DNA from: an uncultured virus (IMG/VR IMGVR_UViG_3300034355_000834)
Taxonomy: Duplodnaviria > Heunggongvirae > Uroviricota > Caudoviricetes
Strand: one strand, 5' to 3'
IMG/VR virus record: IMGVR_UViG_3300034355_000834
DNA length: 64,000 nt
The position numbers and the translations under genes were made by a program. Below, in pieces: positions 21,230 through 46,085 of this stretch. Below the pieces are notes generated by a model, which saw nothing but the letters and a program-made list of their open reading frames with translations, did no database searches and had not been told where the DNA came from. Numbering within the stretch: position 1 is the first letter of the stretch; each line of letters starts with the position of its first letter.

Positions 21230-22864
21230 ATGTATGTAGATGCTTTTCTAGAAAAAGAAAAGAATACAGTCTACGTCGTTGAACGATCTACTCACGGTAA
21301 AAGGATATACCGTGAGTATCCCGTAGAGTATGTATTCTATTACCCAAACCAATACGGGAATCATCAGAGTATTTTTGGTACTCCCGTATCAAAATTTAAA
21401 ACAAACAATCATAAAGAGTTCAGAAAAGAACTATCGGTTCATTCTGGTGCAAAATTATTTGAATCAGATATTAACCCGGTATTCCGATGTTTGGAGAACA
21501 ATTATCTTGATGCTGCACCACCCAAACTGAATGTAGCGTTCTTTGACATCGAGGTGGCGTTTGATCATGACCGAGGCTTTGCGCCAACCGAAGACCCATT
21601 TAATGAAGTAACAGCAATCACTGTTTATCTTGATTGGATGGATCAGCTTATCACATTAGCCATTCCACCAAAAAATCTCACGATAGATACTGCCACTGAT
21701 TTAGTAAAGGATTTTAGCAACACTTATCTATTTGATACAGAAAAACAAATGTTATCTGTATTTTTGGATATGTTGGATGATGCTGACGTTATCACGGGTT
21801 GGAACAGCGGTGGATTTGATATTCCATATCTTGTAAACAGAATTGCCAAAGTATTAACAAGAGATGACAATAGAAAATGGTGCTTATGGGATCAATCCCC
21901 GAAAAGAAGAATCTATGAGCGATTTGGAAGCGAGATTTTAACTTATGATTTAGTGGGCAGAGTTCATATGGACTACTATGATCTATATCGTAAATTTACT
22001 TACGAAGAGCGACATAGTTATTCATTAGATGCTATTGGCGAATATGAGTTGGGTGATCGTAAAGTATCCTATGAAGGTTCACTTGACCAGCTTTATCATA
22101 GAGACTTCAAAAAGTTTATTGATTACAATAGACAAGACGTTATGTTGGTATTCAAGCTGGACCAAAAGCTAAAATTCATGGAACTGGCTAATACGTTGGC
22201 TCATAAAAACACGGTATTACTACCGACCGCATTGGGTTCAGTTACCATGATTGAGCAAGCGATTATCAACGAAGCTCACAAACAAGGAGTTGTTGTACCG
22301 GACAAGGCACGATCAGATGGATCAGACACTCAGGCAGCGGGCGCATATGTTGCCGTGCCAGTGAAGGGAATGCACGAATATATCGGTTCTATTGATATTA
22401 ACTCACTATATCCTTCTACTCTTCGCGCATTGAATATGGGTCAGGAAACCATTGTTGGTCAAATTAGACCGACAATAACCGATGAGCATATTGCTAATTT
22501 AATGGAGCAAGGCAAGAAGGGTGGAGAACTGTGGGATGGATTGTTCGCTACATTAGAGTATACCGCTGTTATGGAAATGCGAGATATACCTCTGATATTG
22601 GATTGGAACGATGGTAAATCAGAAGAATTATCTGCCAAGCTAATTTGGAAATTGATATTTGACAGTGATTTGCCGTGGGGATTATCAGCTAATGGTACTA
22701 TTTTTACATTCCAAAAAGAAGCAATTGTTCCCGGTCTTCTGAAAAAATGGTATTCTCAGAGGAAAGAATTTCAAGCTAAATTGAATAAACTGATTGAGTA
22801 CAATAATTCAAAGATTGAACTTCCTGATGATATCATTGAAAAATTATCAATGATAGATGATTAG
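21230..22864 (+). CDS. polB: family B DNA polymerase, N-terminal subunit (3'-5' exonuclease and palm motif A)
   Basis: FFDIEV, GWNSGGFDIPY, YSLDAI, YNRQDV, GAYV, DINSLYPS; ends in the fingers after RKEFQ. Confidence 0.92.
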   Translation: MYVDAFLEKEKNTVYVVERSTHGKRIYREYPVEYVFYYPNQYGNHQSIFGTPVSKFKTNNHKEFRKELSVHSGAKLFESDINPVFRCLENNYLDAAPPKLNVAFFDIEVAFDHDRGFAPTEDPFNEVTAITVYLDWMDQLITLAIPPKNLTIDTATDLVKDFSNTYLFDTEKQMLSVFLDMLDDADVITGWNSGGFDIPYLVNRIAKVLTRDDNRKWCLWDQSPKRRIYERFGSEILTYDLVGRVHMDYYDLYRKFTYEERHSYSLDAIGEYELGDRKVSYEGSLDQLYHRDFKKFIDYNRQDVMLVFKLDQKLKFMELANTLAHKNTVLLPTALGSVTMIEQAIINEAHKQGVVVPDKARSDGSDTQAAGAYVAVPVKGMHEYIGSIDINSLYPSTLRALNMGQETIVGQIRPTITDEHIANLMEQGKKGGELWDGLFATLEYTAVMEMRDIPLILDWNDGKSEELSAKLIWKLIFDSDLPWGLSANGTIFTFQKEAIVPGLLKKWYSQRKEFQAKLNKLIEYNNSKIELPDDIIEKLSMIDD

Positions 22865-22898
22865 TGCTAAATAGCTCCATATAGAGAGAACACAGAGT

Positions 22899-24092
22899 AT
22901 GGAACTACAACAGATATTTAGGATAATTGAGAATGACTCTTTGGCCAATATAAAAAGTCATCATTATTTCAATAGATATAAGAAAATAATTTCAATTTAT
23001 GTAAATAGAATCATTGATCTGGAAAAAACAGGTGATTTGGGAGAATTTGAAAGTCATCATATTCTCCCAAAATCAATGTATCCTGATTTAAAAAAGGAAA
23101 AATGGAACTTAGTTCGCTTGCCAACGAGAGTTCATTATTTGGTGCATTATCTACTATTTAAGTCTTTTTCTGATGATGGATTGACGTTTGCATTCAATCA
23201 GATGCGTCGTATAACAAAAACAAAAAGACCAAATTGTAAATTATATGAATCAGTGCGAAAGGATTTCGCACAAACTATAAGCAAAAACAATAAAGGAAAA
23301 CAAAGAGATGCAATTTTTAAAAATGCTTGCGCAGAACGAACTAAAAATACAAATGTTTACAGATCACCAGATGGAGAACTACGGAGATTTACTATAGGAT
23401 CGGAACCTTATGATTGGGTATCATTTCAAAATGGTAGAGTGAGAACCAATGATTCCAAAAAATTGATTAAAGACATAATGAAAGAACGAGTTTGGCAATA
23501 TAATCAGATAACAAGAGAGGTAAAATTTGAACATACTATTTTGGATGGATTTTTAAAAGGATTTCCGCCTTGGTTTGAAATCAATGGGAAAAAGTGCAAG
23601 GATTCTATCTGGATACATCACGCTATAGAAAAAACCAATAAAAGACTTAAAGTGAATGAGCAAATACCAAAGGGCTATGTTTTTGGTAGATTCTTTGAAT
23701 CTAATCCTGGGTTAGACCGATTGAATAATGGACACGAAACTCTTGTATTAGACCTAATGAATAAAGAATATATATTAGTAGATAAATCGTTATTACCAAA
23801 TGCACGATACAAAAAGCACGGAACCTCTCTTGACAAAGTGTTCCTATTCAAATACAATAATACTGTCTACACTTCAATGAAGGATATGTGTGACCATTTG
23901 GGCATATCACGATTTCCTTCCAATCCATCTTTTTTACAAAAAATCATACCAAAGAAACATTGGAACCAGACAAAAAACATGCAAAAAATAAGCGAAAAAT
24001 TTGGCGGCAAAACTTATAACCAAGCAGGATTTAGTGCAATTTCATTATTGGAATACGAATTCAAAGAGGAAGAGATATATGTTAGATATTGA
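22899..24092 (+). CDS. free-standing HNH homing endonuclease between the two polB genes
   Basis: ESHHILPKS..NLVRLPTRVHYLVHYLL; GCTAAATA upstream. Confidence 0.8.
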   Translation: MELQQIFRIIENDSLANIKSHHYFNRYKKIISIYVNRIIDLEKTGDLGEFESHHILPKSMYPDLKKEKWNLVRLPTRVHYLVHYLLFKSFSDDGLTFAFNQMRRITKTKRPNCKLYESVRKDFAQTISKNNKGKQRDAIFKNACAERTKNTNVYRSPDGELRRFTIGSEPYDWVSFQNGRVRTNDSKKLIKDIMKERVWQYNQITREVKFEHTILDGFLKGFPPWFEINGKKCKDSIWIHHAIEKTNKRLKVNEQIPKGYVFGRFFESNPGLDRLNNGHETLVLDLMNKEYILVDKSLLPNARYKKHGTSLDKVFLFKYNNTVYTSMKDMCDHLGISRFPSNPSFLQKIIPKKHWNQTKNMQKISEKFGGKTYNQAGFSAISLLEYEFKEEEIYVRY

Positions 24093-26541
24093 TAGACTTC
24101 GTGATATAGTTAAATCTAAGGATACGAAGGAAATAAGAGATTATATGAAAAAATATAATCTCTATGTAGAAAACGGAAAAATAATAATCCCGAAAGACAA
24201 ATTAACAGAAGCTAAGGAATATTGGGATAGACAACAGCACTCTATCAAAATTTTCATTAATTCGCTTAAATGTAGGGCGCATTTGGTGGCGACATCAAAT
24301 TGAAAATCTCGTGAATTCGGTGAACATCCAGAATCTGAAAGGATTCCACCGAGGAGTGATAAATAATTGCATGTAAACGGCAAGATGGAGTTAAAACATG
24401 CAATACAAGAAATGCACAAGATGTCACAATGACCTTCCGCTCACAGACTTCCACAAGGACAGAAAAGGCAAATGGGGCCTCAGGTCTTGGTGCAAAAAGT
24501 GTGAGAGTAAACGATGCAAACATTCTACTATTGCTGACAAACGCAAAGCACATAGAGAAAATAAAACAGTCGTGTACTACAATGGAAGAGCCGGCAAGTT
24601 GAAGCAACGAGCTCCTGGCAACGTTACAGGAGAAGACTTAATGGAACTAATGTCAGTGTGTGGTCACAAATGTGTATACTGCGGTAGTGAAGAAAGTCTA
24701 CAGTTTGACCATGTGATAAGCGTGGAAAGCGGTGGAACTAGTGATTTGTGTAACATCTCTGTTCTGTGCGCTGATTGCAACAGAATGAAGGGAAGAAGAA
24801 ATCACCGCGACTTTATTGCCCTCCTTGTAAAAATTATATCAAACCTCGGAACGGACAATACCGAGCCAAGCCTCATCAATGGGGAAGGTGTAACGACTAT
24901 CCCGAAAGGGAGTACTGCCAAGTGGCAGGAAGCGCGAGACATCTGATAGTATCAGAAGAAGAGATAGTCTAATCTTTATAGGAATATAAAGCGGCCAATT
25001 GTTGGCGGCAATGAATTAACGAATCATTGTGAATATACTGTTACGGCGCAATTCTCAACCAGCATTGCAAGTTTTTTGATAAAAGAATAGGCCAATCTAC
25101 CACATTAACAGGTAGATCAATATGTAAGCATATGGCGGCAAAGGTAAATGAACTAATATGCGAAGAATACAATCATGAAGGCAAGTCAATAATTTATGGT
25201 GATACTGACAGTCATTTGGGTTCTACTGTTATTAGAACAAATAAAGGAAATGTTGCCGTAGAAGAACTGTTTGAGTCATGTACGGAGTTTTGGAACAATG
25301 GTGATAAGGAATACGCGAACGATTCTACTTTGAAGGTTCTATCTTATGATCCAAGTGATAATACACTAATGTATGATAGTATCAATTATATATATCGTCA
25401 CAAAGTAACTAAGGATTTATATGAGATCGAGGATGAATTGGGAAATATTGTAACGGTAACAGAGGATCATTCTGTTATGGTGGAACGCGAAGGCATATTG
25501 TGCGAAGTTAAACCAATGGATATCCAGGAAAACGATATACTAATATCTGTTCATGATTGTATGAATGAAATCAAGGTATTTAAGGGCCGCGTGAAATCAG
25601 TGAGAAAGATTGAAGCGGCCAAAAACGAGTATGTTTATGACATTGGCATGAAACACGACGTAAATCAATGGTATTTTGGAAACAACATTCTAATTCACAA
25701 TAGTTGTTATTTCTCAGCGTGGCCGATAGTAAGAGACTCAAATGCAAAATGGGACAAGGAAATAGCCATTCGTGTATATGATTCAATTGCAGATCAAGTT
25801 AATGAATCATTTCCGTCCTTTATGGAACAAGCATTTCATTGTCCACGATCTTTTGGGGAGATTATCAGGGGTGGTAGAGAAATTGTAGCAAGGCGTGGGA
25901 TTTTCATAACCAAAAAGCGTTATGCAGTGATGTATTATGACAAGGATGGACACCGATATGACAATGATGGCAAAGTAGGTAAACTAAAAGCGATGGGATT
26001 AGACTTAAAGCGATCTGATACCCCAAAATTCGTTCAAAAGTTTTTAGTAGAGATACTTGAAGACGTGCTAAATGGCGGTAACAAAGAAGACGTTATTGAG
26101 AAAATTCTTGCATTCAAACTTCAATTTATGGAGATGCCATCATGGGAGAAAGGAACTCCAAAGAGAGTGAATAATCTTACCAAGTTCACTGTAATGTATG
26201 ATAAAAACGCAAGGTCCAATCTTCCCGGTCATGTGAGAGCGGCAGTCAATTGGAATATCTTGCGAGAAATTAACAAAGACAACAAGGTCATGAAAATAAA
26301 TGATGGTCAAAAAACTATCGTATGCAAGCTAAGAAATAACGCCTTAAATTGGACATCTATTGCATATCCGATTGACGAACAACATCTACCAAAATGGTTT
26401 CTTGAATTGCCGTTTGATGATAATCTGATGATGACCACAATCGTAGATAAAAAGATTGACAATGTCATTGGAGTATTGGATTGGAATTTAAGAGAATCCA
26501 CTGAACTAACAAACACTTTTCAAAGCCTATTTGACTTCTGA
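24079..26541 (+). CDS. polB: family B DNA polymerase, C-terminal subunit; join(24079..24266,25041..26541), contains an intein
   Basis: SD GAGGA + ATG 24079; splicing restores KIFINSLYGA..GQSTTLTGR; YGDTD/S; KKRYA; GLDLKRSDTP. Confidence 0.88.
24267..25040 (+). ncRNA. group I self-splicing intron in polB motif B
   Basis: 5' exon ends in U (P1 cgcu/gggcg); intron ends in G; core strings gaattcggtgaa, aataccgagccaagc, aacgactat, aagagatagtcta; removal restores the frame. Confidence 0.88.
24398..24946 (+). CDS. intron-encoded HNH endonuclease
   Basis: CxxC zinc motifs; CVYCG..FDHVI..GG..CNI..LCADCN; 3' end runs into the ribozyme core. Confidence 0.85.
   Translation: MQYKKCTRCHNDLPLTDFHKDRKGKWGLRSWCKKCESKRCKHSTIADKRKAHRENKTVVYYNGRAGKLKQRAPGNVTGEDLMELMSVCGHKCVYCGSEESLQFDHVISVESGGTSDLCNISVLCADCNRMKGRRNHRDFIALLVKIISNLGTDNTEPSLINGEGVTTIPKGSTAKWQEARDI
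25210..25701 (+). mobile_element. mini-intein (164 aa, no endonuclease) at polB YGDTD|S
   Basis: starts SHLGST; block B VTEDHS; block F VYDIG; ends IHN followed by Ser. Confidence 0.92.
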
Positions 26542-26616
26542 TTTAACCTTTTTCCTTGACACATTTTACCATAAACAGTAAAGTTAAACAGCAATCAACA
26601 ACAATATGGAGAAATA

Positions 26617-27339
26617 ATGAAAGACTATCTTCACGATTTAGTGAGTCACACATTTGATTTAGGTGGTATCGGCTTAATTAAAATTACCGGAACTGATACA
26701 GAAACTCTTATCAATGCTGTTGCAGACGATAAATCAGTCGTGGTAGAGGGAAAGTTTCTGAAGCCATCTGCTGATTTTATAGGCACGTTTGGTATGCCAA
26801 ATCTTAGCAAGCTAAAGATTCTTCTCAATCTACCTGAGTATAAAGAGAATGCCAAGCTAACATTGACTCATAAAGAAGAAAATGTTCCTGATGGCATTGA
26901 TTTTGAAAATGCCGCAGGGGATTTTCATAATAACTACCGATTTATGGCGCGAGCGGTAGTTGACGAGGCTTTGCGTGTTCCTCGGTTTAAGGGCGTCAAT
27001 TGGCATGTTGAATTTCAACCCACCGTAGTTGGTATTCAGAGATTAAAGATGCAAGCACAAGCACATAGCGAGGAAACCAGTTTTCAAGCTAAGACTGAAG
27101 AGAACGATCTTAAATTCTATTTTGGAGATCATTCTACTCATGCCGGTGATTTTACATTCCATCATGGTATATCCGGCAATCTGAAGAAACCTTGGTCATG
27201 GCCAATTAAATCAATCATCTCCATTCTTGATCTTACTGGAGATAAGATTTTTAAAATCAGCGACGATGGCGCGGCAATGATTACGGTTGACACGGGTCTT
27301 GCCACCTATAATTACATTTTACCAGCACAAACAAAGTAA
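26617..27339 (+). CDS. putative sliding clamp (gp45-like)
   Basis: 240 aa directly after polB; ends YNYILPA; beta-rich pattern. Confidence 0.55.
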   Translation: MKDYLHDLVSHTFDLGGIGLIKITGTDTETLINAVADDKSVVVEGKFLKPSADFIGTFGMPNLSKLKILLNLPEYKENAKLTLTHKEENVPDGIDFENAAGDFHNNYRFMARAVVDEALRVPRFKGVNWHVEFQPTVVGIQRLKMQAQAHSEETSFQAKTEENDLKFYFGDHSTHAGDFTFHHGISGNLKKPWSWPIKSIISILDLTGDKIFKISDDGAAMITVDTGLATYNYILPAQTK

Positions 27340-27347
27340 CTAAGAAA

Positions 27348-27611
27348 ATGGCTAAAGTAAAAAACCAACCAAACCCAGCAGTAGCAAAGATTTTTGATGA
27401 TCTTGCTAAATTTTTGAACTTTTGCAGAGATTATGGATATCGGTTTAACGAATCCGATCTATACAACTTCAAGAGCTACCCTTGGCAACAATATAACAAG
27501 TTCATCAATGGAAAGAACGCCAAGGATATGTGGGCAGAAGACATCAGGCGGTTAGGAGGAAGATTCTCCAAACCAGTATTCACTTCAAGTGATCCAAGCA
27601 CCACTGCTTAA
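27348..27611 (+). CDS. hypothetical phage protein
   Basis: ORF; FLNFCRDYGYRFNE. Confidence 0.6.
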   Translation: MAKVKNQPNPAVAKIFDDLAKFLNFCRDYGYRFNESDLYNFKSYPWQQYNKFINGKNAKDMWAEDIRRLGGRFSKPVFTSSDPSTTA

Positions 27612-27623
27612 AATCACTACATG

Positions 27624-27657
27624 ACTCTTGGGTAATCAGATTACCCAAGAGTTTTTC
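27624..27657 (+). terminator. 13-bp perfect hairpin plus T-run (intrinsic terminator or operator)
   Basis: actcttgggtaat-cag-attacccaagagt-tttt. Confidence 0.55.
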
Positions 27658-27672
27658 TATAACAAGTATAAT

Positions 27673-27957
27673 ATGACAGAAAAAATATCTTCTCCAAACC
27701 ACTATCAAGGATTAAATGACCTTGAAGTTATTGATGTTATTGATATATTCAATCTGAATTTTTCACGCGGGTGTGCTGTTAAATACGTTCTTAGAGCAGG
27801 ACACAAGTTAGAAGAAGGATATACCAAGGAAGAAAAAGAAATAGAAGATTTAGAAAAAGCGATTTGGTATATTACGCACGAAGTAAATTTAATAAAGGAA
27901 AGGTCGTCCATTGCCGATACGGAAATTTTCACCATACCAACATCTCAGTCTAAATAG
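27673..27957 (+). CDS. DUF3310-like protein
   Basis: PNHY..EVIDVI..F..G.AVKY..RAG.K..EDLEKAIWY. Confidence 0.8.
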   Translation: MTEKISSPNHYQGLNDLEVIDVIDIFNLNFSRGCAVKYVLRAGHKLEEGYTKEEKEIEDLEKAIWYITHEVNLIKERSSIADTEIFTIPTSQSK

Positions 27958-27983: not shown

Positions 27984-28808
27984 ATGAAAAATTCAAAAAA
28001 TCACAAATATAATATTGCTATTCTTCTTCCAACAAGAGGAAGAACTGATGCTTTAAATCGTAGTATTGTTAGTCTGGTAAATCGGGCATTAGATAAAGAT
28101 AAAATTCAATTACTATTGGCATTTGACAACGACGATAACATTGGATATGATTACTTTGAGAAGGAAATTGTTCCTTATCTTGAATCCAAGGGCGTAGATT
28201 ATGAAGCATTTGAGTTTGATTCATTGGGATACGAAGGATTGAATCAATATTACAACTCTCTTGCGAAGAATGCTGACGCAGATTGGTTCTTCATTTGGAA
28301 CGATGATGCCATCATGGAATCAACCGGATGGGATAGAACTATCGCCTCTCATACTGGAAACTTCAAGCTACTAGCAGTTAGAACTCATCGCGATCATCCT
28401 TACAGTATTTTCCCAATTATTCCAACCGAGTGGCACGATGTAATGGGCTATCTAAGTCGTCATCAGATGATTGATGCCGAGGTAAGTCATATTGCCTATA
28501 TGCTGGATATATTTGAACGTATTCCCGTATATGTAACTCATGATCGGTTTGACTTGACTGGAAATAATTTGGATGAAACCGAAATAAACCGAGTCAGATT
28601 TGAGGGTAATCCTGATAACCCATTAGATTACTCTAATATTCATAACATTCAGGGAAGAGTAAAAGATGCTGAATTTTTATCAAAATATCTTCAGTCTAAA
28701 GACATGGATATGTCTTGGTGGGAAAATGTAAAAACAGGTAAACAAGATCCATGGGAAAAATTAGCAGCTAATGATCCTAATGGCCAAACAGTGAGAACAT
28801 CAAAATAA
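27984..28808 (+). CDS. GT-A (GT2-like) glycosyltransferase
   Basis: ILLPTRGR, FDNDD, WNDDA, GWD. Confidence 0.8.
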   Translation: MKNSKNHKYNIAILLPTRGRTDALNRSIVSLVNRALDKDKIQLLLAFDNDDNIGYDYFEKEIVPYLESKGVDYEAFEFDSLGYEGLNQYYNSLAKNADADWFFIWNDDAIMESTGWDRTIASHTGNFKLLAVRTHRDHPYSIFPIIPTEWHDVMGYLSRHQMIDAEVSHIAYMLDIFERIPVYVTHDRFDLTGNNLDETEINRVRFEGNPDNPLDYSNIHNIQGRVKDAEFLSKYLQSKDMDMSWWENVKTGKQDPWEKLAANDPNGQTVRTSK

Positions 28809-30037
28809 TGAGTGATATAAACGTAAGTACAAAAATAGATAAGTGTATTATTACCGGCGAATCGGTTGTTTCAGTTTTAGATTTGGGTCAACACTCTTAT
28901 GCGGATACATTTATCAATGAAGATCAATTGAATCTATCTGAGCCTGTGTTTCCGTTGCAAGTAAATTTATGCCCATCTTCTGGTCATTTACAACTCGCTT
29001 ATGTAAGTCACGCTGAAGAGCGATACAATTTGTATAGCTATAGCTATACGTCAAGCAATTCTGCATTCTCGCGAAATCATTGGGATAACTATGCTCGCGA
29101 GGTTAAGAATCGGTTTAGCCCAACATCATTGGTAGTAGAAGTTGGTAGTAACGATGGTTACTTGGTTGGCCAATTTTCTGATAGTTGCAAAAAAGTATTA
29201 GGCGTGGATATTTCAGGGACGATGTGTTCAATCGCCGAAGATCGTGGTGTACCATCAGTTCAGGGTGCGTTTAATAGCAATTTAGGAAAAGAATTACAAG
29301 AACTTCATGGTTATGCTGATGTAGTTATTGCTAACAATGTATTAAATCATGCCAATGATCCTGTGGATTTTTCAAAAGGAGCAGCTACCTTAATTGGAAT
29401 CAACGGAACATTCGTTTTTGAAATGCCCTATTGGGTAAGTATGTTAGAAAGCGGTCGTTTTGTAGATCAGGTATATCATGAGCATATTAGCTATTTTACA
29501 ATGAAGAGCATTGTAGCAATGTTAAGTAAGGCAGATTTGGTAGTATCTGATGTCGAGGTTGTAGACTATCATGGTGGAAGTATTCGCGTATATGCGCGAT
29601 ATAAAACATCGGCAACTCAGTCTCCATTAGTGGATTCTTATATCAAGCATGAAGAAGAAAGTGGATATTTTACCAGTGAGTTTTATGACGCACTTGTTAA
29701 AAAGTTTTCACAACAACGCTCAGAATGGTTAGCTAATTTTTACAGAATTAAAAATGAAAACCCAAATGCCATTATCATTGGAGTCGGTGCTGCCGCTAAG
29801 GCAATGACATGGCTGAATTATCATGGAATCAATAAAAATGATCTTTGTTACATCACGGATTCCAGTGAATTTAAGCAAGGAAAATATACCGCGCTAAGTA
29901 GAATTCCTATAGTGTCCGACAATATATTCGCTGAATATCATGATCCCTATGCGCTCGTATTGAGTTGGAACATTGGTGATCGGCTAAAAGAAATCTTACT
30001 TAGTATTAACCCAAATATCAAATTTATCTCACAATGA
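28808..30037 (+). CDS. NDP-hexose C-methyltransferase (NovU/EryBIII/TcaB9-like)
   Basis: VLDLG..ADTF, EVGSNDG, ANNVLNH, YHEHISYF, HGGSIR, GAAAKA, KQGKY..IPIV. Confidence 0.88.
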   Translation: MSDINVSTKIDKCIITGESVVSVLDLGQHSYADTFINEDQLNLSEPVFPLQVNLCPSSGHLQLAYVSHAEERYNLYSYSYTSSNSAFSRNHWDNYAREVKNRFSPTSLVVEVGSNDGYLVGQFSDSCKKVLGVDISGTMCSIAEDRGVPSVQGAFNSNLGKELQELHGYADVVIANNVLNHANDPVDFSKGAATLIGINGTFVFEMPYWVSMLESGRFVDQVYHEHISYFTMKSIVAMLSKADLVVSDVEVVDYHGGSIRVYARYKTSATQSPLVDSYIKHEEESGYFTSEFYDALVKKFSQQRSEWLANFYRIKNENPNAIIIGVGAAAKAMTWLNYHGINKNDLCYITDSSEFKQGKYTALSRIPIVSDNIFAEYHDPYALVLSWNIGDRLKEILLSINPNIKFISQ

Positions 30038-30444
30038 AACGAATCAATATTTATAAACCCATTCCAGATTCTGGATTAGAAGTTCACGGTGATGACCGAG
30101 GATGGATTGCTGATGTATTTTATGGCACCAGCATCAATCATGTCTGTATTCTCAAAAACAACCCAAATGCCGTTCGTGGTAATCATTACCATAAAAACAC
30201 TGTTCAGCACACGCTATTAACTAAAGGAAAAATGCGCTATTGGTGGCAAGTATCCGATAAAAGTCAAGCAGCGAATTTTATTGACGTTGAGGTTGGTGAT
30301 CTTATTACCAGCGAACCTAATGAGATTCATACTCTACAGTTTTTAGATGAAGATTCTGAGTGTGTGGTTTTCACCGAAGGTCCGCGTGGTGGCGTAGATT
30401 ACGAGTCTGATACGTATAGAGTAGAGTCTATTATTTCAGAATGA
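30034..30444 (+). CDS. cupin sugar epimerase/isomerase (RmlC/FdtA-like)
   Basis: DDRG, RGNHYH, EIH. Confidence 0.8.
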   Translation: MKRINIYKPIPDSGLEVHGDDRGWIADVFYGTSINHVCILKNNPNAVRGNHYHKNTVQHTLLTKGKMRYWWQVSDKSQAANFIDVEVGDLITSEPNEIHTLQFLDEDSECVVFTEGPRGGVDYESDTYRVESIISE

Positions 30445-31034
30445 AAGCATTAGTATTTGGAGCCTCTGGTGGCATAGGCAATGCAACCACTGATCTTCTT
30501 AAAGACAAGGACTATCAGGTAATCGGATTATCCAGCGCCAATGTTGATTTTACCGATATTGATAGTGGTGATGTTATATATTATTACTTGAAAAAGAACG
30601 ACCCTGATGTTATAATCAATTGTGCCGGATATTTAGCGGACAATTATGATTCTGGTCATAATACGCTCTATATTAACATAGAATCAAATTGGTCTATCAT
30701 TAGGTATTATATTGACAATCCGCCCATCAAGCCTGTTCATATTGTTTTAGTGGGTAGCAGTGCTTATAGAGAAGGAAAAAAACAGTACATGATGTATTCG
30801 GCCAGTAAAGCTGCCCTTCATAATTTGTGGGAGGGTGCTGCCGACTACTTTAAAAACACCAATGTTACCATAAGCATCATTCATCCTGTGAGAACAAGGT
30901 CTAAGATGACAATCAATAGATTTTCGCCTGATTTGGATTATTTTGAGCCAGAAGAAGTGGCAGAAAGAATACTATCAATGATTGATGACAACGAAAGTAA
31001 ATGTATTAAAATATCATTTGAGGAAAAACAATGA
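30441..31034 (+). CDS. short-chain dehydrogenase/reductase
   Basis: GASGGIG, INCAG, YSASK. Confidence 0.85.
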   Translation: MKALVFGASGGIGNATTDLLKDKDYQVIGLSSANVDFTDIDSGDVIYYYLKKNDPDVIINCAGYLADNYDSGHNTLYINIESNWSIIRYYIDNPPIKPVHIVLVGSSAYREGKKQYMMYSASKAALHNLWEGAADYFKNTNVTISIIHPVRTRSKMTINRFSPDLDYFEPEEVAERILSMIDDNESKCIKISFEEKQ

Positions 31035-31801
31035 AAAAATTAGGACTATTAGGTAAAGGAACTGTGGGTTCCGCAGTATATGAGGGGCTGAAATCAATTG
31101 GGCATAATATGTCTTTTTATGATCCATCCTATCCAGAAACGAAATTTGAAGACATTCTTGATACTGAATGCGTATTCATTTGTGTACCAACTGATCAAGC
31201 TGACAACGGTGATTGTGATGTATCCATTGTGAACTCAGTGGTTGCTCAACTTAGCGATGTTGGCTACAAGGGGCTTGTTGCTATCAAGAGCACTGTTGTT
31301 CCTGGAACTTCGGCAAGGCTACAAGAAGAATATCCTTCGTTACGAATGGCATCTGTTCCAGAATTTTTAAGGGCAAAAACCGCATTGGCTGATTTTGTAT
31401 ACAACCATGATGTATTGGTCATTGGGACATTCAATGAAGCAGATGCTAATTTGGTTGAAGAAATTCATGGAAGCCTTCCGAAAGCGGTGAGCAAGATTTC
31501 TCCCACTGAAGCAGAGATCATTAAGTATTTTAACAATGTACATCATTCTGTATCTATTATCTTCGCAAATATTGCATACGAAGTCTGCAAGCGGCTTGGT
31601 GTAAATTACAATAATGTTTATGAAACTATTATCAAGCGAGAATGCTTCAATCCTGCCTATCTGAAGTGTAATGACAATATGCGTGGATTTGGCGGTCATT
31701 GTTTGCCCAAAGATACCAGCGCATGGAATAATCTGATTAAAAATCTTGGTCTTGAATTTGAATTGATTCAAGCTGCTCTTAACGATAATAAGAGGGTATA
31801 A
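31031..31801 (+). CDS. UDP-glucose/GDP-mannose dehydrogenase family (C-terminal domain absent)
   Basis: GKGTVG, FICVPT, IKSTVVPG, PEFL, GFGGHCLPKD. Confidence 0.88.
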   Translation: MKKLGLLGKGTVGSAVYEGLKSIGHNMSFYDPSYPETKFEDILDTECVFICVPTDQADNGDCDVSIVNSVVAQLSDVGYKGLVAIKSTVVPGTSARLQEEYPSLRMASVPEFLRAKTALADFVYNHDVLVIGTFNEADANLVEEIHGSLPKAVSKISPTEAEIIKYFNNVHHSVSIIFANIAYEVCKRLGVNYNNVYETIIKRECFNPAYLKCNDNMRGFGGHCLPKDTSAWNNLIKNLGLEFELIQAALNDNKRV

Positions 31802-32706
31802 TGGCAAAAATTCTTGTAACAGGAGCCAGTGGTCTGCTAGGAACAGAGATATGCAGGCAGCTAAAGGAATCAACAAATCATGTGGTTACTGCACTTGATA
31901 ATCATTCTCGTTCATCATCTATTCCACCGTGTGATCAGTGGGTAAGAGCAGATTTGAGAAATAAGGATACATTAGATCATCTTGGGTTTGATTGGGATTA
32001 TATCTATCATTACTCTGCTATCAATGGCACCACCAACTTCTACGAACGCCCAAATGAAGTGTTGACCAATAACTTTATTAGCGATGTATCAGTTTTTGAG
32101 TTTGCATCCAAGTGTAAAAATCTAAAAAAGATTATTTACGCAAGCACCAGTGAAATGGTTAGCGACGAGCCGCTATGTCCAACCCCAGAACTCAGTGATA
32201 TCACTATAAAAGATATTCATAATGCTCGTTGGAGTTATCGTATCGCTAAATTAGCCAGTGAAAACTACTTAGCCAATAGCAAATTACCTTATGTCACTAT
32301 TCGGTATTTTAATATCTATGGTCCCGGTAGCAAGGCTGGTCATTTTGTTGCAGATCAGATTGCCAAGATTAAGCGAGGAATCTTTGAAATTGTCGGCGGC
32401 GATGAGTCTCGCAGTTTTTGCTATATTGAGGATGCTATTCAAGCAACTATCTATTGTGGCGAACATGTCGGCGGCATCGTCATCAATGTTGGCAACGATC
32501 AGGAAACGAATATCGGAGAGGCGTGTAAAATTATTGGAACGCTCATGGGTTATGAAAATGCGCAATGGACCACCATTCCAGGCAGAGATGGCAGCACCAA
32601 GCGGCGTTTACCTGATATTAACCGATTACGATCTATTATGCCTTCATATTCTCCGAGAACCTTTACAGAAGGGATGATTGATATTGTAAGAGAATTGTCA
32701 CTTTAA
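31801..32706 (+). CDS. NAD-dependent sugar epimerase/decarboxylase (UDP-glucuronate decarboxylase-like)
   Basis: TGASGLLG, YASTSE, YRIAK, RYFNIYGP, RSFCYI.D. Confidence 0.85.
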   Translation: MAKILVTGASGLLGTEICRQLKESTNHVVTALDNHSRSSSIPPCDQWVRADLRNKDTLDHLGFDWDYIYHYSAINGTTNFYERPNEVLTNNFISDVSVFEFASKCKNLKKIIYASTSEMVSDEPLCPTPELSDITIKDIHNARWSYRIAKLASENYLANSKLPYVTIRYFNIYGPGSKAGHFVADQIAKIKRGIFEIVGGDESRSFCYIEDAIQATIYCGEHVGGIVINVGNDQETNIGEACKIIGTLMGYENAQWTTIPGRDGSTKRRLPDINRLRSIMPSYSPRTFTEGMIDIVRELSL

Positions 32707-32767
32707 TCATTGACAGTGTTGAGTGTTTCTGATATAGTTAGACACTCAACACTATGAGATAACCAGT

Positions 32768-33280
32768 ATGAAAAATGTGTTAATTGATTGGAAAACTATT
32801 GAGAATTATACACTTGAAATTGCTCGACAGATTTCAAGTAGTCGTTGGCAACCTGACTATGTCGTAGGCGTAACACGTGGTGGATTGATGTCTGCCACGT
32901 TGTTGAGCGAATGGTTTGATTGCCCAATGCACACATTGGAAGTTCATTTTAAAAATACCGTACCAGACAATTGCCAATCTGTTCTTTGGATGGCAGAAGA
33001 TGCTTTTGGTGAGTATGAAGATAAGAAAAACATTCTTGTCATTGATGATATAAACAAGGCAGGGAATGTCATCAATTGGATAATAAATGATTGGCAAAAT
33101 TCTTGTCACCCAAATGATCCTCGTTGGGAAGATGTATGGGGAAAAAATGTAAGATTCTCGGCATTATTTGACAAGCCTTGCGGAAAAATTCTACATCACG
33201 TAGATTACAGCGCAACGTCAATGGACCTTGATGATGATCGTTGGATACATATGCCTTGGCAAAATTGGTGGATGAGGTAA
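32768..33280 (+). CDS. phosphoribosyltransferase (Gpt-like)
   Basis: PDYVVGVTRGGL, ILVIDDIN, W..MPW. Confidence 0.8.
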   Translation: MKNVLIDWKTIENYTLEIARQISSSRWQPDYVVGVTRGGLMSATLLSEWFDCPMHTLEVHFKNTVPDNCQSVLWMAEDAFGEYEDKKNILVIDDINKAGNVINWIINDWQNSCHPNDPRWEDVWGKNVRFSALFDKPCGKILHHVDYSATSMDLDDDRWIHMPWQNWWMR

Positions 33281-33285
33281 TTATT

Positions 33286-33711
33286 ATGAGAGCAGGAGAT
33301 TTTCACAACATGGTTGGTCAACGAAGATACGTCACTCGCCCTAATCGCGAGTGGGAGTGTTTTAAATCGGCCAACAGTCATTTACACAGAAGCAGGGATG
33401 CCTCACTGACAGCAGGATTAACATTCTGCACGTCTGGTTATACTTCTGGTGGACAACAACCCATTTATCATACTCCGGTATACGAACTAGGGGTGATAGA
33501 TAAGTCTACGAATCGGGCTATTCGTTGGTTGCATCCTGATTTTAAAGAGGATTTCATCAAGGAATGCGAGAGTAAAGGAATTGATTGGACAAATGCAATT
33601 GATGATCTATCATTTGTTACTATTGACGATTATGATGAAGCTCGTTCAAAAGTAAGAGAATTGATATCGGAATTTTACAAATCCCACCCAGGATATGACA
33701 TATACGATTAG
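33286..33711 (+). CDS. hypothetical protein (paralog of 42089..42562)
   Basis: shared AIRW..P..K..F..EC..K.ID...A motif. Confidence 0.6.
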   Translation: MRAGDFHNMVGQRRYVTRPNREWECFKSANSHLHRSRDASLTAGLTFCTSGYTSGGQQPIYHTPVYELGVIDKSTNRAIRWLHPDFKEDFIKECESKGIDWTNAIDDLSFVTIDDYDEARSKVRELISEFYKSHPGYDIYD

Positions 33712-33744
33712 GTCTAATTAGATTATCAACAGGGAAATTATTTT

Positions 33745-34854
33745 ATGTATTTTTTTACAAGTGAAAGCGTAAGCGAAGGTCATCCGGATAAGGTGGCTGA
33801 TGCTATTAGTGATGCTATCTTAGATTTAGCATTATCAGTAAAAACAACCGAAGCAAAACAAGCTACAAGAGTGGCTTGCGAAACCATGGTCACAACCAAT
33901 AGAGTTATTGTGGCCGGTGAATACAAGGGTGTATTAAATGACACCGATGTAGAGGCTACCATTAAACAGGTGGTCAAAGATATAGGATATGAACAAGATG
34001 GATTTAATTGGAAGACCTTAAAGATTAGTAATTATCTTCATGGTCAAAGTGCTGATATTGCCTTGGGAACAGATAATCTTGGTGCCGGTGATCAGGGAAT
34101 TATGTTTGGTTTCGCAAACGATGATACCGAAGAGTATATGCCAGCAGCCATTTATTACAGTCACAAGATAGTAAAGCGATTGGCCGAGATTAGAAAAGCA
34201 GGTGAGTCTATGCTTGGACCCGATACAAAGTCTCAGGTCACTATTGAATACACTGTTGACAATCGTGTTGATAACATACCAAAAATTGTATGTTCAACCC
34301 AACATTCTTCAGATAGCGAAATTAAGCAAGTCAAAGAATTGGTACTGAATACTATTCATGAAGTTATTCCTAGCCATTTGCTTACCAATAACACCGAGTA
34401 TCTTATTAACCCTACTGGAAGATTTGTAATTGGTGGACCAGATGGAGATTGTGGTCTCACTGGCAGGAAGATTATCGTTGACACTTATGGTGGATATTCA
34501 CCACATGGCGGTGGTGCATTCTCTGGCAAGGATCCATCCAAGGTTGATAGGTCGGCGGCATATATGTCTCGCTATCTTGCTAAAAACATTGTCAGCCATT
34601 ATGGTGGTAGATCAGCAACAGTTCAATTATCATACGCTATTGGCGTAAAAGAACCCACATCAATCTTTGTTATGTTGGATGGTAAAGTGAGAGAAGACAT
34701 TGCATCAAGAATTAAATGTTTGGTAGATTTAACGCCGAAGGGTATCATTGACAGGTTTGATCTATTCAGGCCGATTTACAGAAAAACAACCAACTATGGA
34801 CATTTTGGCAAACCCGACAATGATCTGGCTTGGGAAAACATCAATCTATTTTAA
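33745..34854 (+). CDS. metK: S-adenosylmethionine synthetase
   Basis: FTSESVSEGHPDK, GAGDQG, GRKIIVDTYGG, GGGAFSGKDPSKVDRS. Confidence 0.97.
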   Translation: MYFFTSESVSEGHPDKVADAISDAILDLALSVKTTEAKQATRVACETMVTTNRVIVAGEYKGVLNDTDVEATIKQVVKDIGYEQDGFNWKTLKISNYLHGQSADIALGTDNLGAGDQGIMFGFANDDTEEYMPAAIYYSHKIVKRLAEIRKAGESMLGPDTKSQVTIEYTVDNRVDNIPKIVCSTQHSSDSEIKQVKELVLNTIHEVIPSHLLTNNTEYLINPTGRFVIGGPDGDCGLTGRKIIVDTYGGYSPHGGGAFSGKDPSKVDRSAAYMSRYLAKNIVSHYGGRSATVQLSYAIGVKEPTSIFVMLDGKVREDIASRIKCLVDLTPKGIIDRFDLFRPIYRKTTNYGHFGKPDNDLAWENINLF

Positions 34855-34863: not shown

Positions 34864-35238
34864 ATGAAATGGTTCAGTAATCTTTTCAAAAGAAAGAAAA
34901 AACAAGTTAAGAAAAAAGAAGCGTTAAGTGAGATAGAGGTAGCCACTCAACGAGGCGAACCCTATGTTGCTATTTTAAGCATGGACATTGATCCAAATAA
35001 CCCGCACGAAGGTTCGTTTGAATTAGAATGGAATGATAAATTTCTCACGACCTTGATTCGTCATGGATATCAAAAATCGGAGAATGACACGGATGCTGAT
35101 ATTGTGGATCGGTGGTTTGTTACTTTGTGTAGGCATGTAGTATTAGAGACATTTGAACAATATGAGGCTATGTTGCCTGATGTTCACCGAGTAATTAAAC
35201 AAAAAAATATTGGGGACGGATTTTCAGAAGCCTCTTGA
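34864..35238 (+). CDS. hypothetical phage protein
   Basis: ORF; GEPYV..FELEWN. Confidence 0.65.
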   Translation: MKWFSNLFKRKKKQVKKKEALSEIEVATQRGEPYVAILSMDIDPNNPHEGSFELEWNDKFLTTLIRHGYQKSENDTDADIVDRWFVTLCRHVVLETFEQYEAMLPDVHRVIKQKNIGDGFSEAS

Positions 35239-42566: not shown

Positions 42567-43262
42567 ATGAATTTTTCCTTTGCCTTTGATGTTGATGGCA
42601 CTTTGACGTTAAGTCGTCAAAAAATTGATTCGGATTTTGCAGAGTGGTTTCTCAATTGGGTCAAGAAGCATAAGGTATACATTGTTACTGGCAGTGATTA
42701 TGAAAAAACTGTAGAACAATTGGGACAAGAGATATGTGATTCGGTGGCTGGTATCTTCAATTGTTCTGGTAATGCTTTTTATATAAAGGGCGAATTACAA
42801 TCATCCAATGAATTTAAGCTAAACGACAGCCAAATGGAGATATTAAATCGTTATTTGTCTAAGAGTCCATTTCCTCTGAGAACCGGAAATCACTTTGAAC
42901 AACGACAAGGAATGTGTAATTTTAGCGTGGTGGGAAGAAATGCCACCATAGAAGAGCGGCAACAATATTCTGATTATGATGGTCAGGTTGCGGAACGTCA
43001 GCGTATTGTTACTCAATTTAAGCATTGTTTTCCTGAGTTGGACGCAGTTCTTGGTGGTGATATTAGTATTGATATTTTTCCGAAGGGCAATGATAAGAGT
43101 CAAGTTGCTGAAAAATTGAAGCCATTTGTTTATTTTGGTGATCGTGTATTTCCGGGTGGAAATGATTACACTATTGCTAAGGAAGCAGAGGCTCATTATA
43201 ACGTGAAAGATTGGCAAGAAACTCGGAGGATTATAGAATTGTATTACAATGAAAGTGTATGA
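42567..43262 (+). CDS. HAD-IIB phosphomannomutase-like protein
   Basis: FDVDGTLT, VTGSD, NFSVVGR, GGDISIDIFPKG.DK, FGDR..GGND. Confidence 0.85.
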   Translation: MNFSFAFDVDGTLTLSRQKIDSDFAEWFLNWVKKHKVYIVTGSDYEKTVEQLGQEICDSVAGIFNCSGNAFYIKGELQSSNEFKLNDSQMEILNRYLSKSPFPLRTGNHFEQRQGMCNFSVVGRNATIEERQQYSDYDGQVAERQRIVTQFKHCFPELDAVLGGDISIDIFPKGNDKSQVAEKLKPFVYFGDRVFPGGNDYTIAKEAEAHYNVKDWQETRRIIELYYNESV

Positions 43263-43797
43263 ATTTCTCAATGAGGTTTTAAATTCCGATGTACCCACAA
43301 CAACCGATGATTGTTTAAGAAAATCAATTATTCAAACGTATGGTAAGAATATCATCTCTGGTCATACTTCTGTTTGGCAATCTGAAATAATGAAAAAAAC
43401 CGGCGTGTGGGTTGTGAAAATAATGGATCGCTCTCGGCAGATTCAATATCATATTATGTCAGATGATGTTGAAGCAGGAGAGGTAAAAACCGCAGATCAA
43501 ATTGATTCCAAAATAGGATTAGATTGTATGAACATTATTGCCAAGGATGCCTTGAGGTCCTTGAAAAACGGATATCCTGTGATTATTCTTGCACCAACCG
43601 AAGATAAAATAATGTCATATAGTCAAATGGCAAAAATGCTATTGAGGTCAAAGAAAAGCGAGTTTAAACTGACCGAGCCATTTACTACATTGGGACTTGA
43701 TAATATCCAAAGATGGGGCATTAAGATTTTTGAAAACTATATTCCTAAATTGTCTGATGTGAATTATTTGCTGACAACATCTAAATGTAAAAAATGA
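43249..43797 (+). CDS. tagged protein (MKVYEFLNEV); stand-alone copy of a domain repeated in the giant protein
   Basis: SGHT.V..M..RQIQYHI..KIGLD..NII..DA..PVIILAP. Confidence 0.7.
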   Translation: MKVYEFLNEVLNSDVPTTTDDCLRKSIIQTYGKNIISGHTSVWQSEIMKKTGVWVVKIMDRSRQIQYHIMSDDVEAGEVKTADQIDSKIGLDCMNIIAKDALRSLKNGYPVIILAPTEDKIMSYSQMAKMLLRSKKSEFKLTEPFTTLGLDNIQRWGIKIFENYIPKLSDVNYLLTTSKCKK

Positions 43798-43821
43798 TAA
43801 ATATATCAAGAGGACATTGCA

Positions 43822-44076
43822 ATGCGAGCATATGAATTTATAACTGAACTAACTTTTTTTGGCAGTCAATGCAAAGAAATTTGTGCCGGACATTTAGCTG
43901 GGTATAGATGGGCACGTAGGAACAATATAACCAATCCCCCACAAACCAATAGTCCATCTTTTAACAAAGGCGCAACTATTGCAATTCAACACATGCGTCA
44001 AGGACGAAACCCCATTGGACCAAGTGGCGTGAGAGGCGAACGTGGTAGATTTCATCCTATGCCCAAAGGAAGATAA
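43822..44076 (+). CDS. small tagged protein (MRAYEFITEL)
   Basis: C..GHLAGYRWA..SPSFNKG; TGATAAATA upstream. Confidence 0.65.
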   Translation: MRAYEFITELTFFGSQCKEICAGHLAGYRWARRNNITNPPQTNSPSFNKGATIAIQHMRQGRNPIGPSGVRGERGRFHPMPKGR

Positions 44077-44166
44077 TTGCCGATTGCATTAACAGTAAAC
44101 AATCTATTTTCTCAATTTTCACCCACTGTCATAATATTGTAACACTAACAGTGTTAAATAGTTACT

Positions 44167-45006: not shown

Positions 45007-45008
45007 TT

Positions 45009-46001: not shown

Positions 46002-46085
46002 GCTGAAGCACCTCTTTTGCGTTAGAGTCCTTGGGAACGCCAATTCCGCGAAGGACATTAAATATATTTATACAATATGCTAATC

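Follow-up and report, generated by a model that had tools for sequence, protein, structure and literature searches.

In the available parts of the published reports, the sugar-bearing bases of phage DNA are pyrimidines, with the sugar carried on a hydroxyl group whose making starts either from a ThyA homologue (PMC13326640) or from a C5-methyltransferase together with a TET-like oxygenase (10.1101/2023.12.21.572611). DNA glycosylation with nucleotide sugars made by the phage itself is known (PMC13326640), and phage DNA glycosyltransferases of the GT-A fold, with TarP as top PDB match, have been described (10.1101/2023.12.21.572611). The known 7-deazaguanines of phages, which replace G in DNA, carry no sugar, and their insertion is ascribed to DpdA; all 7-deazaguanine pathways described in the available text of PMC10516641 end in DNA, and in Campylobacter phage CP220 dADG fully replaces dG. 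In QueC-less tubercidin clusters a phosphoribosyltransferase (PRT) acts on 7-carboxy-7-deazaguanine (CDG), and the huimycin glycosyltransferase (GT) glycosylates a 7-deazapurine base (10.64898/2026.04.15.718813, available part). Neither 'glycosyltransferase' nor 'phosphoribosyltransferase' appears as a term in PMC10516641, and no paper on a GT or PRT within a phage deazaguanine module was found in our literature search, which did not extend to bioRxiv supplements. Here, a 64,000-nucleotide stretch of an uncultured virus of the Caudoviricetes (IMG/VR record IMGVR_UViG_3300034355_000834), referred to as the window, was analyzed, in which a GT gene and five putative branched-sugar genes form a cassette followed by a PRT gene. 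The cassette was best read as the branched-sugar arm of a purine or 7-deazapurine nucleotide or DNA modification system, to which we assign a probability of about 0.4, the acceptor being predicted.

The neighborhood of the GT was surveyed in the best 80 of 437 confirmed metagenome loci and the best 80 of 425 confirmed viral loci (73 new). The layout was determined by tblastn with one or two queries per family at E<=1e-6 and >=40% of the query, settings at which divergent copies may escape. In total, 171 sequences were laid out, 168 of which contained the GT and yielded 106 distinct GT sequences, and the counts refer to loci with enough flank; the window is designated WIN, laid-out loci carry L-numbers and related IMG/VR records carry G-numbers. 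QueD was located within 4 kb upstream of the GT in 72/83 loci, FolE upstream in 45/54 and QueE downstream in 40/46. The PRT followed the GT in 33/46 loci, usually adjoining QueE. The sugar genes were more variable: a C-methyltransferase (CMT) was present in 24/46 loci, the full five-gene sugar set in 20/46 and GDP-mannose 4,6-dehydratase (GMD) in 7/46 (4 also with CMT), and no recognised sugar gene was seen in 7/46. In L183-L187 a bare QueD-GT-QueE arrangement was found with nothing between, and the QueD-GT-QueE order held across GT identities down to 54%. The first-pass annotation had proposed checking whether relatives carry other DNA-modification genes at this locus, and this comparison revealed the order FolE-HIT-QueD-GT-(variable sugar genes)-purine PRT-QueE...RNase H-MazG. 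Since QueD and QueE flank the GT in most loci, some of them without sugar genes, the GT is, on this sequence evidence, a constant component of a 7-deazapurine module that lacks QueC, with the sugar genes as its exchangeable, lineage-specific tailoring arm.

Near-identical copies of the cassette were present on four IMG/VR contigs, and remoter relatives showed 45-80% protein identity. Based on Pfam searches with the non-shared open reading frames (ORFs) of the relatives, FolE, a HIT protein and a PTPS-family protein were identified directly 5' of the GT. The PTPS-like protein carried the QueD-type motif CxxxHGY in 5/5 sequences, which keeps the QueD cysteine, and was not of the DpdL type (LxxxHRHxF). 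The ORF of about 285 aa after the PRT was QueE-like and matched annotated phage QueE in 137 records. Cyanobacteria contain pterin glycosides, and since the relatives have FolE and a PTPS-family enzyme immediately 5' of the GT, and short dehydrogenases nearby, a pterin glycoside made by FolE, the PTPS-like enzyme, a short-chain dehydrogenase/reductase (SDR) and the GT, comparable to cyanobacterial biopterin glucoside, would also be conceivable. This was judged very improbable, with QueE joining the set in 40/46 loci and the QueD-type cysteine motif both indicating CDG rather than biopterin, and with neither FolE nor PTPS in the window. Furthermore, the pterin glucosyltransferase structure 5zfk is reported as a match to the GT-B type arabinosyltransferases of phages (PMC13326640, available part). 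In the cultured cyanophage BUCT-ZZ01, QueE-XGPRT-hyp-QueD-FolE stood in a row without a GT.

A wider genome carrying such a locus was surveyed in G002, a relative of 317 kb (CheckV 89%), of which 299/344 ORFs were scanned against Pfam, leaving out 40 ORFs <112 aa and 5 cassette homologues known by BLAST. It was identified as a T4-like jumbo myovirus by gp23, gp20, gp15, gp25, T4 baseplate proteins and TerL. Its nucleotide genes included ThyX, dCMP deaminase, ribonucleotide reductase (RNR) and a dNMP kinase, and its glycan genes DegT, carbamoyltransferase, GT8, a ManC-like gene and FkbM. At least 10 radical-SAM ORFs, several with a SPASM domain, were also present in G002 (L019-L031), with carbamoyltransferase and DegT beside baseplate/tail genes, and the phage further encoded ClpXP, ClpB, GroEL, DnaJ, CsgG and a CHASE2 cyclase.

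In the proposed mechanism, a UDP-glucose dehydrogenase (UGDH)-like enzyme and an extended SDR (Epim301) would, judging from their families, convert UDP-glucose via UDP-glucuronate (UDP-GlcA) to an NDP-4-keto sugar. The TylC3-like CMT would then add a C-methyl branch by C3-methylation, with a phage S-adenosylmethionine synthetase (MetK) topping up S-adenosylmethionine (SAM), the CapF-like cupin would epimerise the sugar, the short SDR would reduce the 4-keto group, and the GT-A enzyme would transfer the branched sugar to its acceptor. This acceptor would most likely be a CDG-type or other purine base or nucleotide ending in phage DNA. Were DNA the target, a purine would be the likelier base, given the GT between QueD and QueE with a purine PRT in relatives. 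The PRT would turn the base into a nucleotide and MazG would remove the competing normal nucleotide, and a pre-replicative route is suggested by these two functions. For the window's lineage, with FolE, QueD and QueE lost from the locus, the precursors would be host-made or the genes would lie beyond the examined 76 kb. DNA modification by the window cassette is thus hypothetical, the core deazapurine genes being missing from the window.

Several observations weigh against this reading. CDG and 7-deazaguanine offer no obvious or known hydroxyl acceptor, the UGDH-like enzyme has no UDP-binding domain, which makes the first step of the sugar line uncertain, and the phage group is known from sequence alone, with no cultured member. 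The GT family was acidic (pI 4.5-6.0 in 29/29 sequences), which is unusual for a DNA-binding enzyme and counts as weak evidence. According to the available text of PMC10516641, every phage with 7-deazaguanine DNA encodes DpdA, and DpdA3 was detected by HHpred only. In our searches, the TGT/DpdA family PF01702 was matched in 0/4 records at E<=1, including the 100%-complete G011, compared with 14/14 for the control, and a remote DpdA3 may escape Pfam. The ORFs beside QueE in CP220 were used as a probe for DpdA3 and no common candidate was obtained, with only QueE and the UGDH-like protein in common. DUF6071 was considered as a hidden DpdA and rejected; it begins with LYVNGDSH, which we take to be an SGNH/GDSL-hydrolase-like block. 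The core genes themselves were searched with hidden Markov models (HMMs) built from the relatives' FolE, HIT, QueD, QueE and four more module ORFs and run on six-frame translations. In the window and its 75.8-kb sister G003 (76 kb), no FolE, HIT, QueD, QueE or related ORF was detected, the best HMM E-value being 0.098. In the 177-kb G007 (51% complete), which belongs to a second clade of such loci, no FolE, PTPS or QueE was found anywhere, and the control G011 gave one each at the GT locus.

Loci with and without the FolE, QueD and QueE core genes were named deaza+ and deaza-, respectively. Nine distinct core-gene-free loci with the full cassette were found (WIN, L003, L005, L040, L044, L046, L048, L121 and L122), and in the 2.9-kb contig L068 likewise no QueD was seen. 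In a quick IQ-TREE of 105 GTs, the deaza- GTs fell into at least two separate well-supported clades nested among deaza+ loci, clade 1 comprising WIN, L003, L005 and L040 (SH-aLRT 99) and clade 2 comprising L044, L046, L048 and L122 (SH-aLRT 100). The GT, the complete set of five sugar genes and the PRT were retained in both clades; in the second, the region upstream of the GT was taken up by unrelated genes, among them those for an AMP-binding enzyme and an N6/N4 DNA methylase. Between the window and its sister strain L003, the dN/dS values of the seven genes, GT through PRT, lay in the range 0-0.25, with 0 for CMT (7 differences, all synonymous), 0.017 for the cupin, 0.05 for the SDR, 0.05 for the UGDH-like gene, 0.13 for Epim301 and 0.24 for the PRT. 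The cassette is conserved and under purifying selection. The dS values of the same pair formed a mosaic over window positions 28808-33280 (GT 0.006, CMT 0.03, cupin 0.54, SDR 0.50, UGDH-like 0.29 and PRT 0.21), which suggests recombination inside the cassette. Among the columns >=95% conserved in deaza+ GTs, the window's clade kept 63/65 and the second clade 65/65 with no convergent change, the two altered positions in the window's clade being 169 (Q to H) and 217 (H to S). Judging from these residues, the GT seems to do the same job without phage-made CDG, which would call for a host-made precursor, genes elsewhere in the genome, or a non-deazapurine acceptor. Such natural lineages, with GT, sugar genes and PRT and no deazapurine core, are new and offer a clean test of the deazapurine acceptor.

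The six-gene cassette predicted by the first-pass annotation was confirmed as real by the ORF list and by family and structure matches. It occupies 27984-32706, with all six abutting genes on the + strand and overlaps of 1 or 4 nt, and a gap of 61 nt separates Epim301 from the PRT gene. Because the full five-gene sugar set recurs in 20/46 informative related loci and the WIN-L003 dN/dS values are this low, the arrangement is more than chance, and the cassette is a functional operon. At the family level, the data supported the gene assignments put forward earlier and the proposed course of the sugar line, in which UDP-glucose gives UDP-GlcA and then a 4-keto sugar that is C-methylated, epimerised, reduced and finally transferred.

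The CMT matched Methyltransf_14 (1e-28) and Methyltransf_13 (7e-12) and contained a class-I methyltransferase domain, giving a three-part architecture of an N-terminal zinc domain (13-73), a class-I SAM domain (99-246) and a C-terminal Methyltransf_14 domain (254-394). Its best solved relative was the D-mycarose 3-C-methyltransferase 4rv9 (3e-51, residues 19-393), and 5t6b and 3ndi were also matched. Four zinc-binding cysteines are expected of the NDP-sugar 3-C-methyltransferase family (TylC3/TcaB9/KijD1). The earlier count of two in the window's enzyme was right, C13 and C55 being kept and T16 and S58 standing in place of the others, and 0 to 2 of the 4 were retained in CMT relatives. In PADLOC, the cassette gave only a weak generic methyltransferase match (CMT to mad2, 1.4e-5).

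The cupin was weakly recognised by sequence (Cupin_2), with H51, H53, E97 and H99 invariant in alignment A5. Its structural model (pLDDT 82.7) had the CapF cupin domain (4yrd/3st7) as the top Foldseek match, with an E-value of 4e-7 and a TM of 0.66 on the query, and oxalate decarboxylase and other cupins were nearly equal. In Staphylococcus aureus CapF, the cupin domain epimerises a UDP-4-keto sugar and the SDR domain then reduces it (PMC5393024, available part). Because the cupin model was closest to the CapF cupin domain and the SDR gene is adjacent, the cupin and the short SDR (SDR197) look like a split CapF on the model. The N-terminus of SDR197 matched adh_short (2e-14), Epimerase (2e-11) and RmlD_sub_bind (8e-8), with generic SDR matches only in PDB.

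The UGDH-like protein matched the central (PF00984, 3e-18) and N-terminal (PF03721, 5e-14) UDPG_MGDP_dh domains and TIGR03026 at 2.5e-40 across model positions 68-295 of 413, and it keeps the catalytic Cys motif GFGGHCLPKD. No PF03720 UDP-binding domain was found, the protein ending at residue 256 directly after the central domain. Among 665 homologues, the best 120 comprised 119 of 256-268 aa and one 190-aa fragment, all with >=66% identity, two domains only and PF03720 in none, so the short form is, by sequence, a tight family. A 256-aa two-domain 'UDP-glucose dehydrogenase', 26% identical to the UGDH-like protein, was located two genes after QueE in CP220 (NC_027997.1, L197:10011-10781); QueE and this protein are all that the CP220 locus and the window's phage group have in common. 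Because CP220, with its dADG DNA, carries this homologue so close to QueE, there is a chance that the UGDH-like enzyme serves the base rather than the sugar. Epim301 matched Epimerase (3.5e-38), and in PDB 6zl6 (2.6e-21), which we take to be a UDP-GlcA 4-epimerase, the UDP-glucuronate decarboxylases 4gll/2b69 (2e-16), and also MoeE5 and UAXS. In NCBIfam it matched PRK11908, a UDP-4-keto-pentose/UDP-xylose synthase (9e-13).

The feed of the CMT differed among loci, with the UGDH-like gene and Epim301 in some and GMD in others. The cupin and short SDR went with the CMT in most loci, and this triple was mostly paired with UGDH-like and Epim301. Among the loci with GMD and CMT, both cupin and short SDR were present in L105/L010 only, L009 had no short SDR, and L078/L082/L159 had neither. 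As the CMT is served alternatively by the UGDH-like gene with Epim301 or by GMD, this alternation is the best evidence that the former two deliver an NDP-4-keto sugar despite the missing UDP domain, and the sequence data fit such a role.

No Pfam or NCBIfam match was obtained for the GT, and phrog_14945 (glycosyltransferase) was matched at 8e-8. Its AF2 model, built with 29 homologues, reached a pLDDT of 91.1 and displayed a single-domain GT-A fold, and was accordingly not of the T4 alpha/beta-GT or Aat type (GT-B). Two DxD-type motifs (FDNDD and WNDDA) were present, and 47 columns were invariant in alignment A1. R20, the D48/D50/D51 group and D107/D108 were also present, read without register against the published R...DDD...EDY/F alignment. 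The 2732 homologues of the GT included none with a name, and 'GT2 family, viruses' was the sole label in the ESM Atlas. The best Foldseek matches in PDB were TarP, RmlT and TarS (E about 1e-9), and the best viral structural matches were GT2s of giant viruses and phages.

Such wall-teichoic-acid and polysaccharide enzymes among the top matches would agree with an auxiliary glycan pathway, in which the branched sugar is placed on a virion protein or on the host envelope (lipopolysaccharide, capsule or S-layer) and the deazapurine link reflects a shared hyperplastic island only. These phages carry many other glycan genes, namely a phosphomannomutase (42567-43262) and a GT4 (46077-47102) in the window and the set listed above in G002. 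In a different phage (L013:104-13898), CMT and cupin genes formed part of an extensive glycan cluster that lacked both deazapurine genes and a homologue of the GT studied here; this cluster contained GT2, GT7, GT29 (sialyltransferase-like), a CMP-sugar synthetase, a sulfotransferase, a DHQ-synthase-like protein, two aminotransferases and GMD. The GT of HTVC008M, 26% identical, adjoins a methyltransferase, a carbamoyltransferase and a UGDH, and the window's lineage works without FolE, QueD and QueE. The flanking by QueD and QueE, maintained in GTs as little as 54% identical, is however hard to ascribe to chance, the locus lies among replication genes and not structural genes, and the cassette has no flippase, polymerase or lipid-carrier GT. 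A glycan role was therefore regarded as unlikely, and a purine-directed system remained the preferred reading.

The PRT matched Pribosyltran (7e-10), the xanthine PRT PRK09177 (2e-9) and the purine PRT structure 1vdm (2e-8). In L070, L074, L144, L153, L154, L157 and L158, which form one sub-lineage, a HIT-domain gene between Epim301 and QueE occupies the place of the PRT, and QueD has no HIT gene upstream. MetK was found at the locus in 3/46 cases (WIN, L003 and L049), always together with CMT, and the MazG-like gene shifted within the module, either between PRT and QueE or between FolE and HIT (L083, L160, L162, L166, L169 and L170). The helper roles proposed in the first-pass annotation, MetK for SAM and MazG for dNTP pools, are plausible in view of these positions, MetK being placed after QueE in another lineage and MazG moving inside the module.

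FolE, QueD and QueE with a PRT and without QueC also follow the gene logic of tubercidin, to which huimycin and dapiramicin add a GT and tailored sugars, as far as the available part of 10.64898/2026.04.15.718813 describes them. The product might thus be a glycosylated 7-deazapurine nucleoside or nucleotide that stays free instead of entering DNA and acts as an antimetabolite, decoy or signal in infection; the complete relative G011 without a DpdA/TGT match and the acidic GT would agree with this. We consider it distinctly improbable. No phage was reported to make such a metabolite in the literature searched, the module lies within replication genes with a MazG-like enzyme moving inside it, the window has no core genes, and the phage 7-deazaguanine pathways in the available text of PMC10516641 all lead to DNA.

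The first-pass annotation had favored a sugar on a hydroxymethyl-pyrimidine in the manner of T4. Phage-made nucleotide sugars and GT-A DNA glycosyltransferases, both known from the available parts of PMC13326640 and 10.1101/2023.12.21.572611, and the MazG-like enzyme would suit a 5-hydroxymethyl (or 5-hydroxy) pyrimidine as in T4, RB69 and TET-type phages, but all such systems need a ThyA homologue or a C5-methyltransferase with TET. The ThyA family PF00303 was matched in 0/8 records (G001-G007 and G011; control 10/14) and the C5-methyltransferase PF00145 in 0/4 records including G011 (control 9/14), the complete G011 carrying the same cassette. The remark that no base hydroxymethylase is visible in the window held, as neither a ThyA nor a C5-methyltransferase/TET domain was present in the window ORFs scanned. 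The Tet_JBP profile matched 0/3 records, but the control was likewise without match; the two 2-oxoglutarate (2OG) oxygenases of the window were of the PF13640 type and not Tet_JBP. In G002, dTMP is made by ThyX and dCMP deaminase, the ordinary route. The pyrimidine acceptor is consequently not supported and is close to refuted.

A more specific form of the purine-directed reading can be proposed, which is unlikely in all its parts and yet a serious outside chance. In these T4-like jumbo phages of fresh water, guanine in DNA would be replaced or decorated by a 7-deazapurine carrying a lineage-specific sugar, here a C-methyl-branched pentose. Such a base would be the first case of a purine glycosylated in DNA of any kind. 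Its synthesis would precede replication and proceed via the PRT and a dGTP-clearing MazG, not by DpdA; the swappable cassettes would result from an arms race with modification-dependent nucleases, and deaza- lineages would use host queuosine precursors. The GT between QueD and QueE, a placement seen in far more than a hundred phage loci, the PRT and the interchangeable sugar pathways predict a new purine hypermodification class or a phage-made deazapurine glycoside. Either outcome, if true, would bear on restriction and CRISPR evasion, on sequencing and cloning of such DNA, and on the enzyme toolbox for nucleic-acid glycosylation. There is a real chance of a new DNA base class.

The features of the locus are listed in Table 1. 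The flanks given in the first-pass annotation as split polB, DUF3310, 5'-3' exonuclease/RNase H and MazG-like were borne out by domain matches. The label 'clamp' for the 240-aa ORF at 26617-27339 was not confirmed, since this ORF gave no Pfam match, a PHROG of unknown function and no PDB match below E 0.06. The family-B polymerase (21230-26541) was interrupted, its N-terminal portion of 544 aa being separated by a homing endonuclease (22899-24092) and an HNH gene (24398-24946) from a C-terminal portion that contains an intein splicing domain. L003, the sister strain, has no endonuclease genes at this point, and its two polymerase portions adjoin. Between the 87-aa ORF and the GT, relatives hold FolE-HIT-QueD and the window holds DUF3310 only. 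The 156-aa ORF occupies the stretch between PRT and the 124-aa ORF where relatives hold QueE; it gave zero matches in Pfam, PHROGs, NCBIfam and PADLOC and had no homologue in G002. The 124-aa ORF closes the module in most relatives, standing between QueE or PRT and the 5'-3' exonuclease, and a 141-aa ORF lies between the 5'-3' exonuclease/RNase H and the MazG-like gene. The G+C content was 0.32-0.41 in the window and 0.37-0.395 in the cassette, with no compositional break there. A DNA-level search against 50,697 phage records gave short MetK matches only (<=4% of the query, in 25 records), and the stretch or part of it was present in 20/22 listed freshwater, lake, wetland or soil sequencing runs.

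Table 1. Genes of the cassette and its flanks in the window, with the matches on which each assignment is based
Feature	Position	Strand	Basis
GT-A fold glycosyltransferase (GT), 274 aa	27984..28808	+	phrog_14945 8e-8; AF2 model and Foldseek
NDP-4-keto-sugar 3-C-methyltransferase (CMT), TylC3/TcaB9/KijD1 type, degenerate zinc site, 409 aa	28808..30037	+	Pfam and PDB matches
Small metal-type cupin, candidate CapF-cupin-like sugar epimerase, 136 aa	30034..30444	+	Weak Cupin_2; model compared with CapF
Short SDR (SDR197), candidate 4-ketoreductase, 197 aa	30441..31034	+	Pfam; role suggested by position after cupin
Two-domain UGDH-like dehydrogenase without UDP-binding C-terminal domain, 256 aa	31031..31801	+	Pfam, TIGR03026
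Extended SDR (Epim301), UDP-GlcA-acting group, decarboxylase or 4-epimerase like, 301 aa	31801..32706	+	Pfam, PDB, NCBIfam
Purine (6-oxopurine type) phosphoribosyltransferase (PRT), 170 aa	32768..33280	+	Pribosyltran, PRK09177, 1vdm
156-aa ORF, window's own lineage only	33241..33711	+	No family match
S-adenosylmethionine synthetase MetK, 369 aa	33745..34854	+	Three S-AdoMet_synt domains; TIGR01034 4.8e-130
Conserved 124-aa ORF	34864..35238	+	phrog_13349 1.8e-9
5'-3' exonuclease / RNase H, 337 aa	35290..36303	+	5_3_exonuc_N 1.4e-18
MazG-like (PRA-PH family) nucleotide pyrophosphohydrolase, 120 aa	36712..37074	+	PRA-PH 3e-10, MazG 4e-3
Upstream flank: split polB, 240-aa conserved ORF, 87-aa ORF, DUF3310	21230..27957	+	Pfam, PHROGs

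Elsewhere in the window, a second sugar-related set was located at 42567-47102, in which the phosphomannomutase, of eukaryotic type, was followed by a metallophosphoesterase at 44167-45006, a minus-strand homing endonuclease at 45009-46058 and the GT4; the phosphoesterase and GT4 pair was likewise adjacent in G002. Transposase ORFs of 419 and 449 aa, annotated through phrog_506, were found at 2860-4119 and 57692-59041 and are presumably TnpB/IS200-605-like. The 1916-aa product of the gene at 6441-12191 contained a polyvalent-protein-type ADP-ribosyltransferase domain (ART-PolyVal, 1.9e-18). The regions 50349-50924, 59038-59454 and 61260-62832 held the two PF13640-type 2OG-Fe(II) oxygenases, a ferrochelatase-like PHROG match, a parvulin-type peptidyl-prolyl isomerase (PPIase) and a Fic/Doc-like ORF, and tRNA genes for Val(GAC), which is on the minus strand, for Asn(GTT) and for Gly(ACC) lay at 54570-56002.

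Compared with the 7-deazaguanine systems of Cellulophaga phage phiST (dDG) and CP220 (dADG), as described in the available text of PMC10516641, the window's relatives similarly have FolE, QueD and QueE without QueC by polymerase genes and a MazG-like gene, as in phiST, and share QueE and the 256-aa two-domain UGDH-like protein with the CP220 locus. Unlike these systems, no DpdA/TGT was detected here, the single QueD-like gene of the relatives is not of the DpdL type and none exists in the window, and a purine PRT, a GT-A enzyme and sugar-tailoring genes are built into the module; the window also has no FolE, QueD or QueE, which its relatives possess. T4 with glucosyl-5-hydroxymethylcytosine (glucosyl-hmC), RB69/DLP3 with arabinosyl-5-hydroxycytosine (arabinosyl-5hoC) and the TET-type phages resemble the present group in having a phage GT and a phage-made nucleotide sugar among replication and nucleotide genes, and in a sugar that varies between relatives; the TET-associated enzymes, in the part of the report available, also adopt a GT-A fold whose best PDB match is TarP. 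Differently, the present group had no ThyA homologue or C5-methyltransferase match and the window no TET domain, the RB69, DLP3 and RL38J1 enzymes match the GT-B type (BshA and sucrose-phosphate synthase; PMC13326640, available part) in contrast to the window's GT-A, and the sugar here would be C-methyl branched. Judged by its genes, the cassette lacks defining features of both the phiST/CP220 and the T4/RB69/TET types.

With the tubercidin clusters, the window's relatives have in common a CDG core without QueC and a PF00156 PRT, of which the window holds the PRT only, and with huimycin and dapiramicin a GT and tailored deoxysugars on a deazapurine base (10.64898/2026.04.15.718813, available part). 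Those are actinomycete secondary-metabolite clusters with regulators and transporters, whereas the present genes form an island in a phage replication module, and the comparison was one of gene content, not sequence. In contrast to the TylC3/TcaB9/KijD1 pathways, the 4-keto donor seems to be a pentose derived from UDP-GlcA (or, in relatives, from GMD) rather than a dTDP-6-deoxyhexose, the zinc Cys4 site is cut to 2/4 and to fewer in relatives, and the UGDH-like protein differs from UDP-glucose/GDP-mannose dehydrogenases in having no UDP-binding domain. The CMT nevertheless matched 4rv9, 5t6b and 3ndi over its full length, and the cupin model was nearest the CapF cupin domain, with the SDR next in order. 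What is added here to these known pathways is a branched-sugar line that is predicted to be complete and that includes a minimal UGDH and a putative split CapF.

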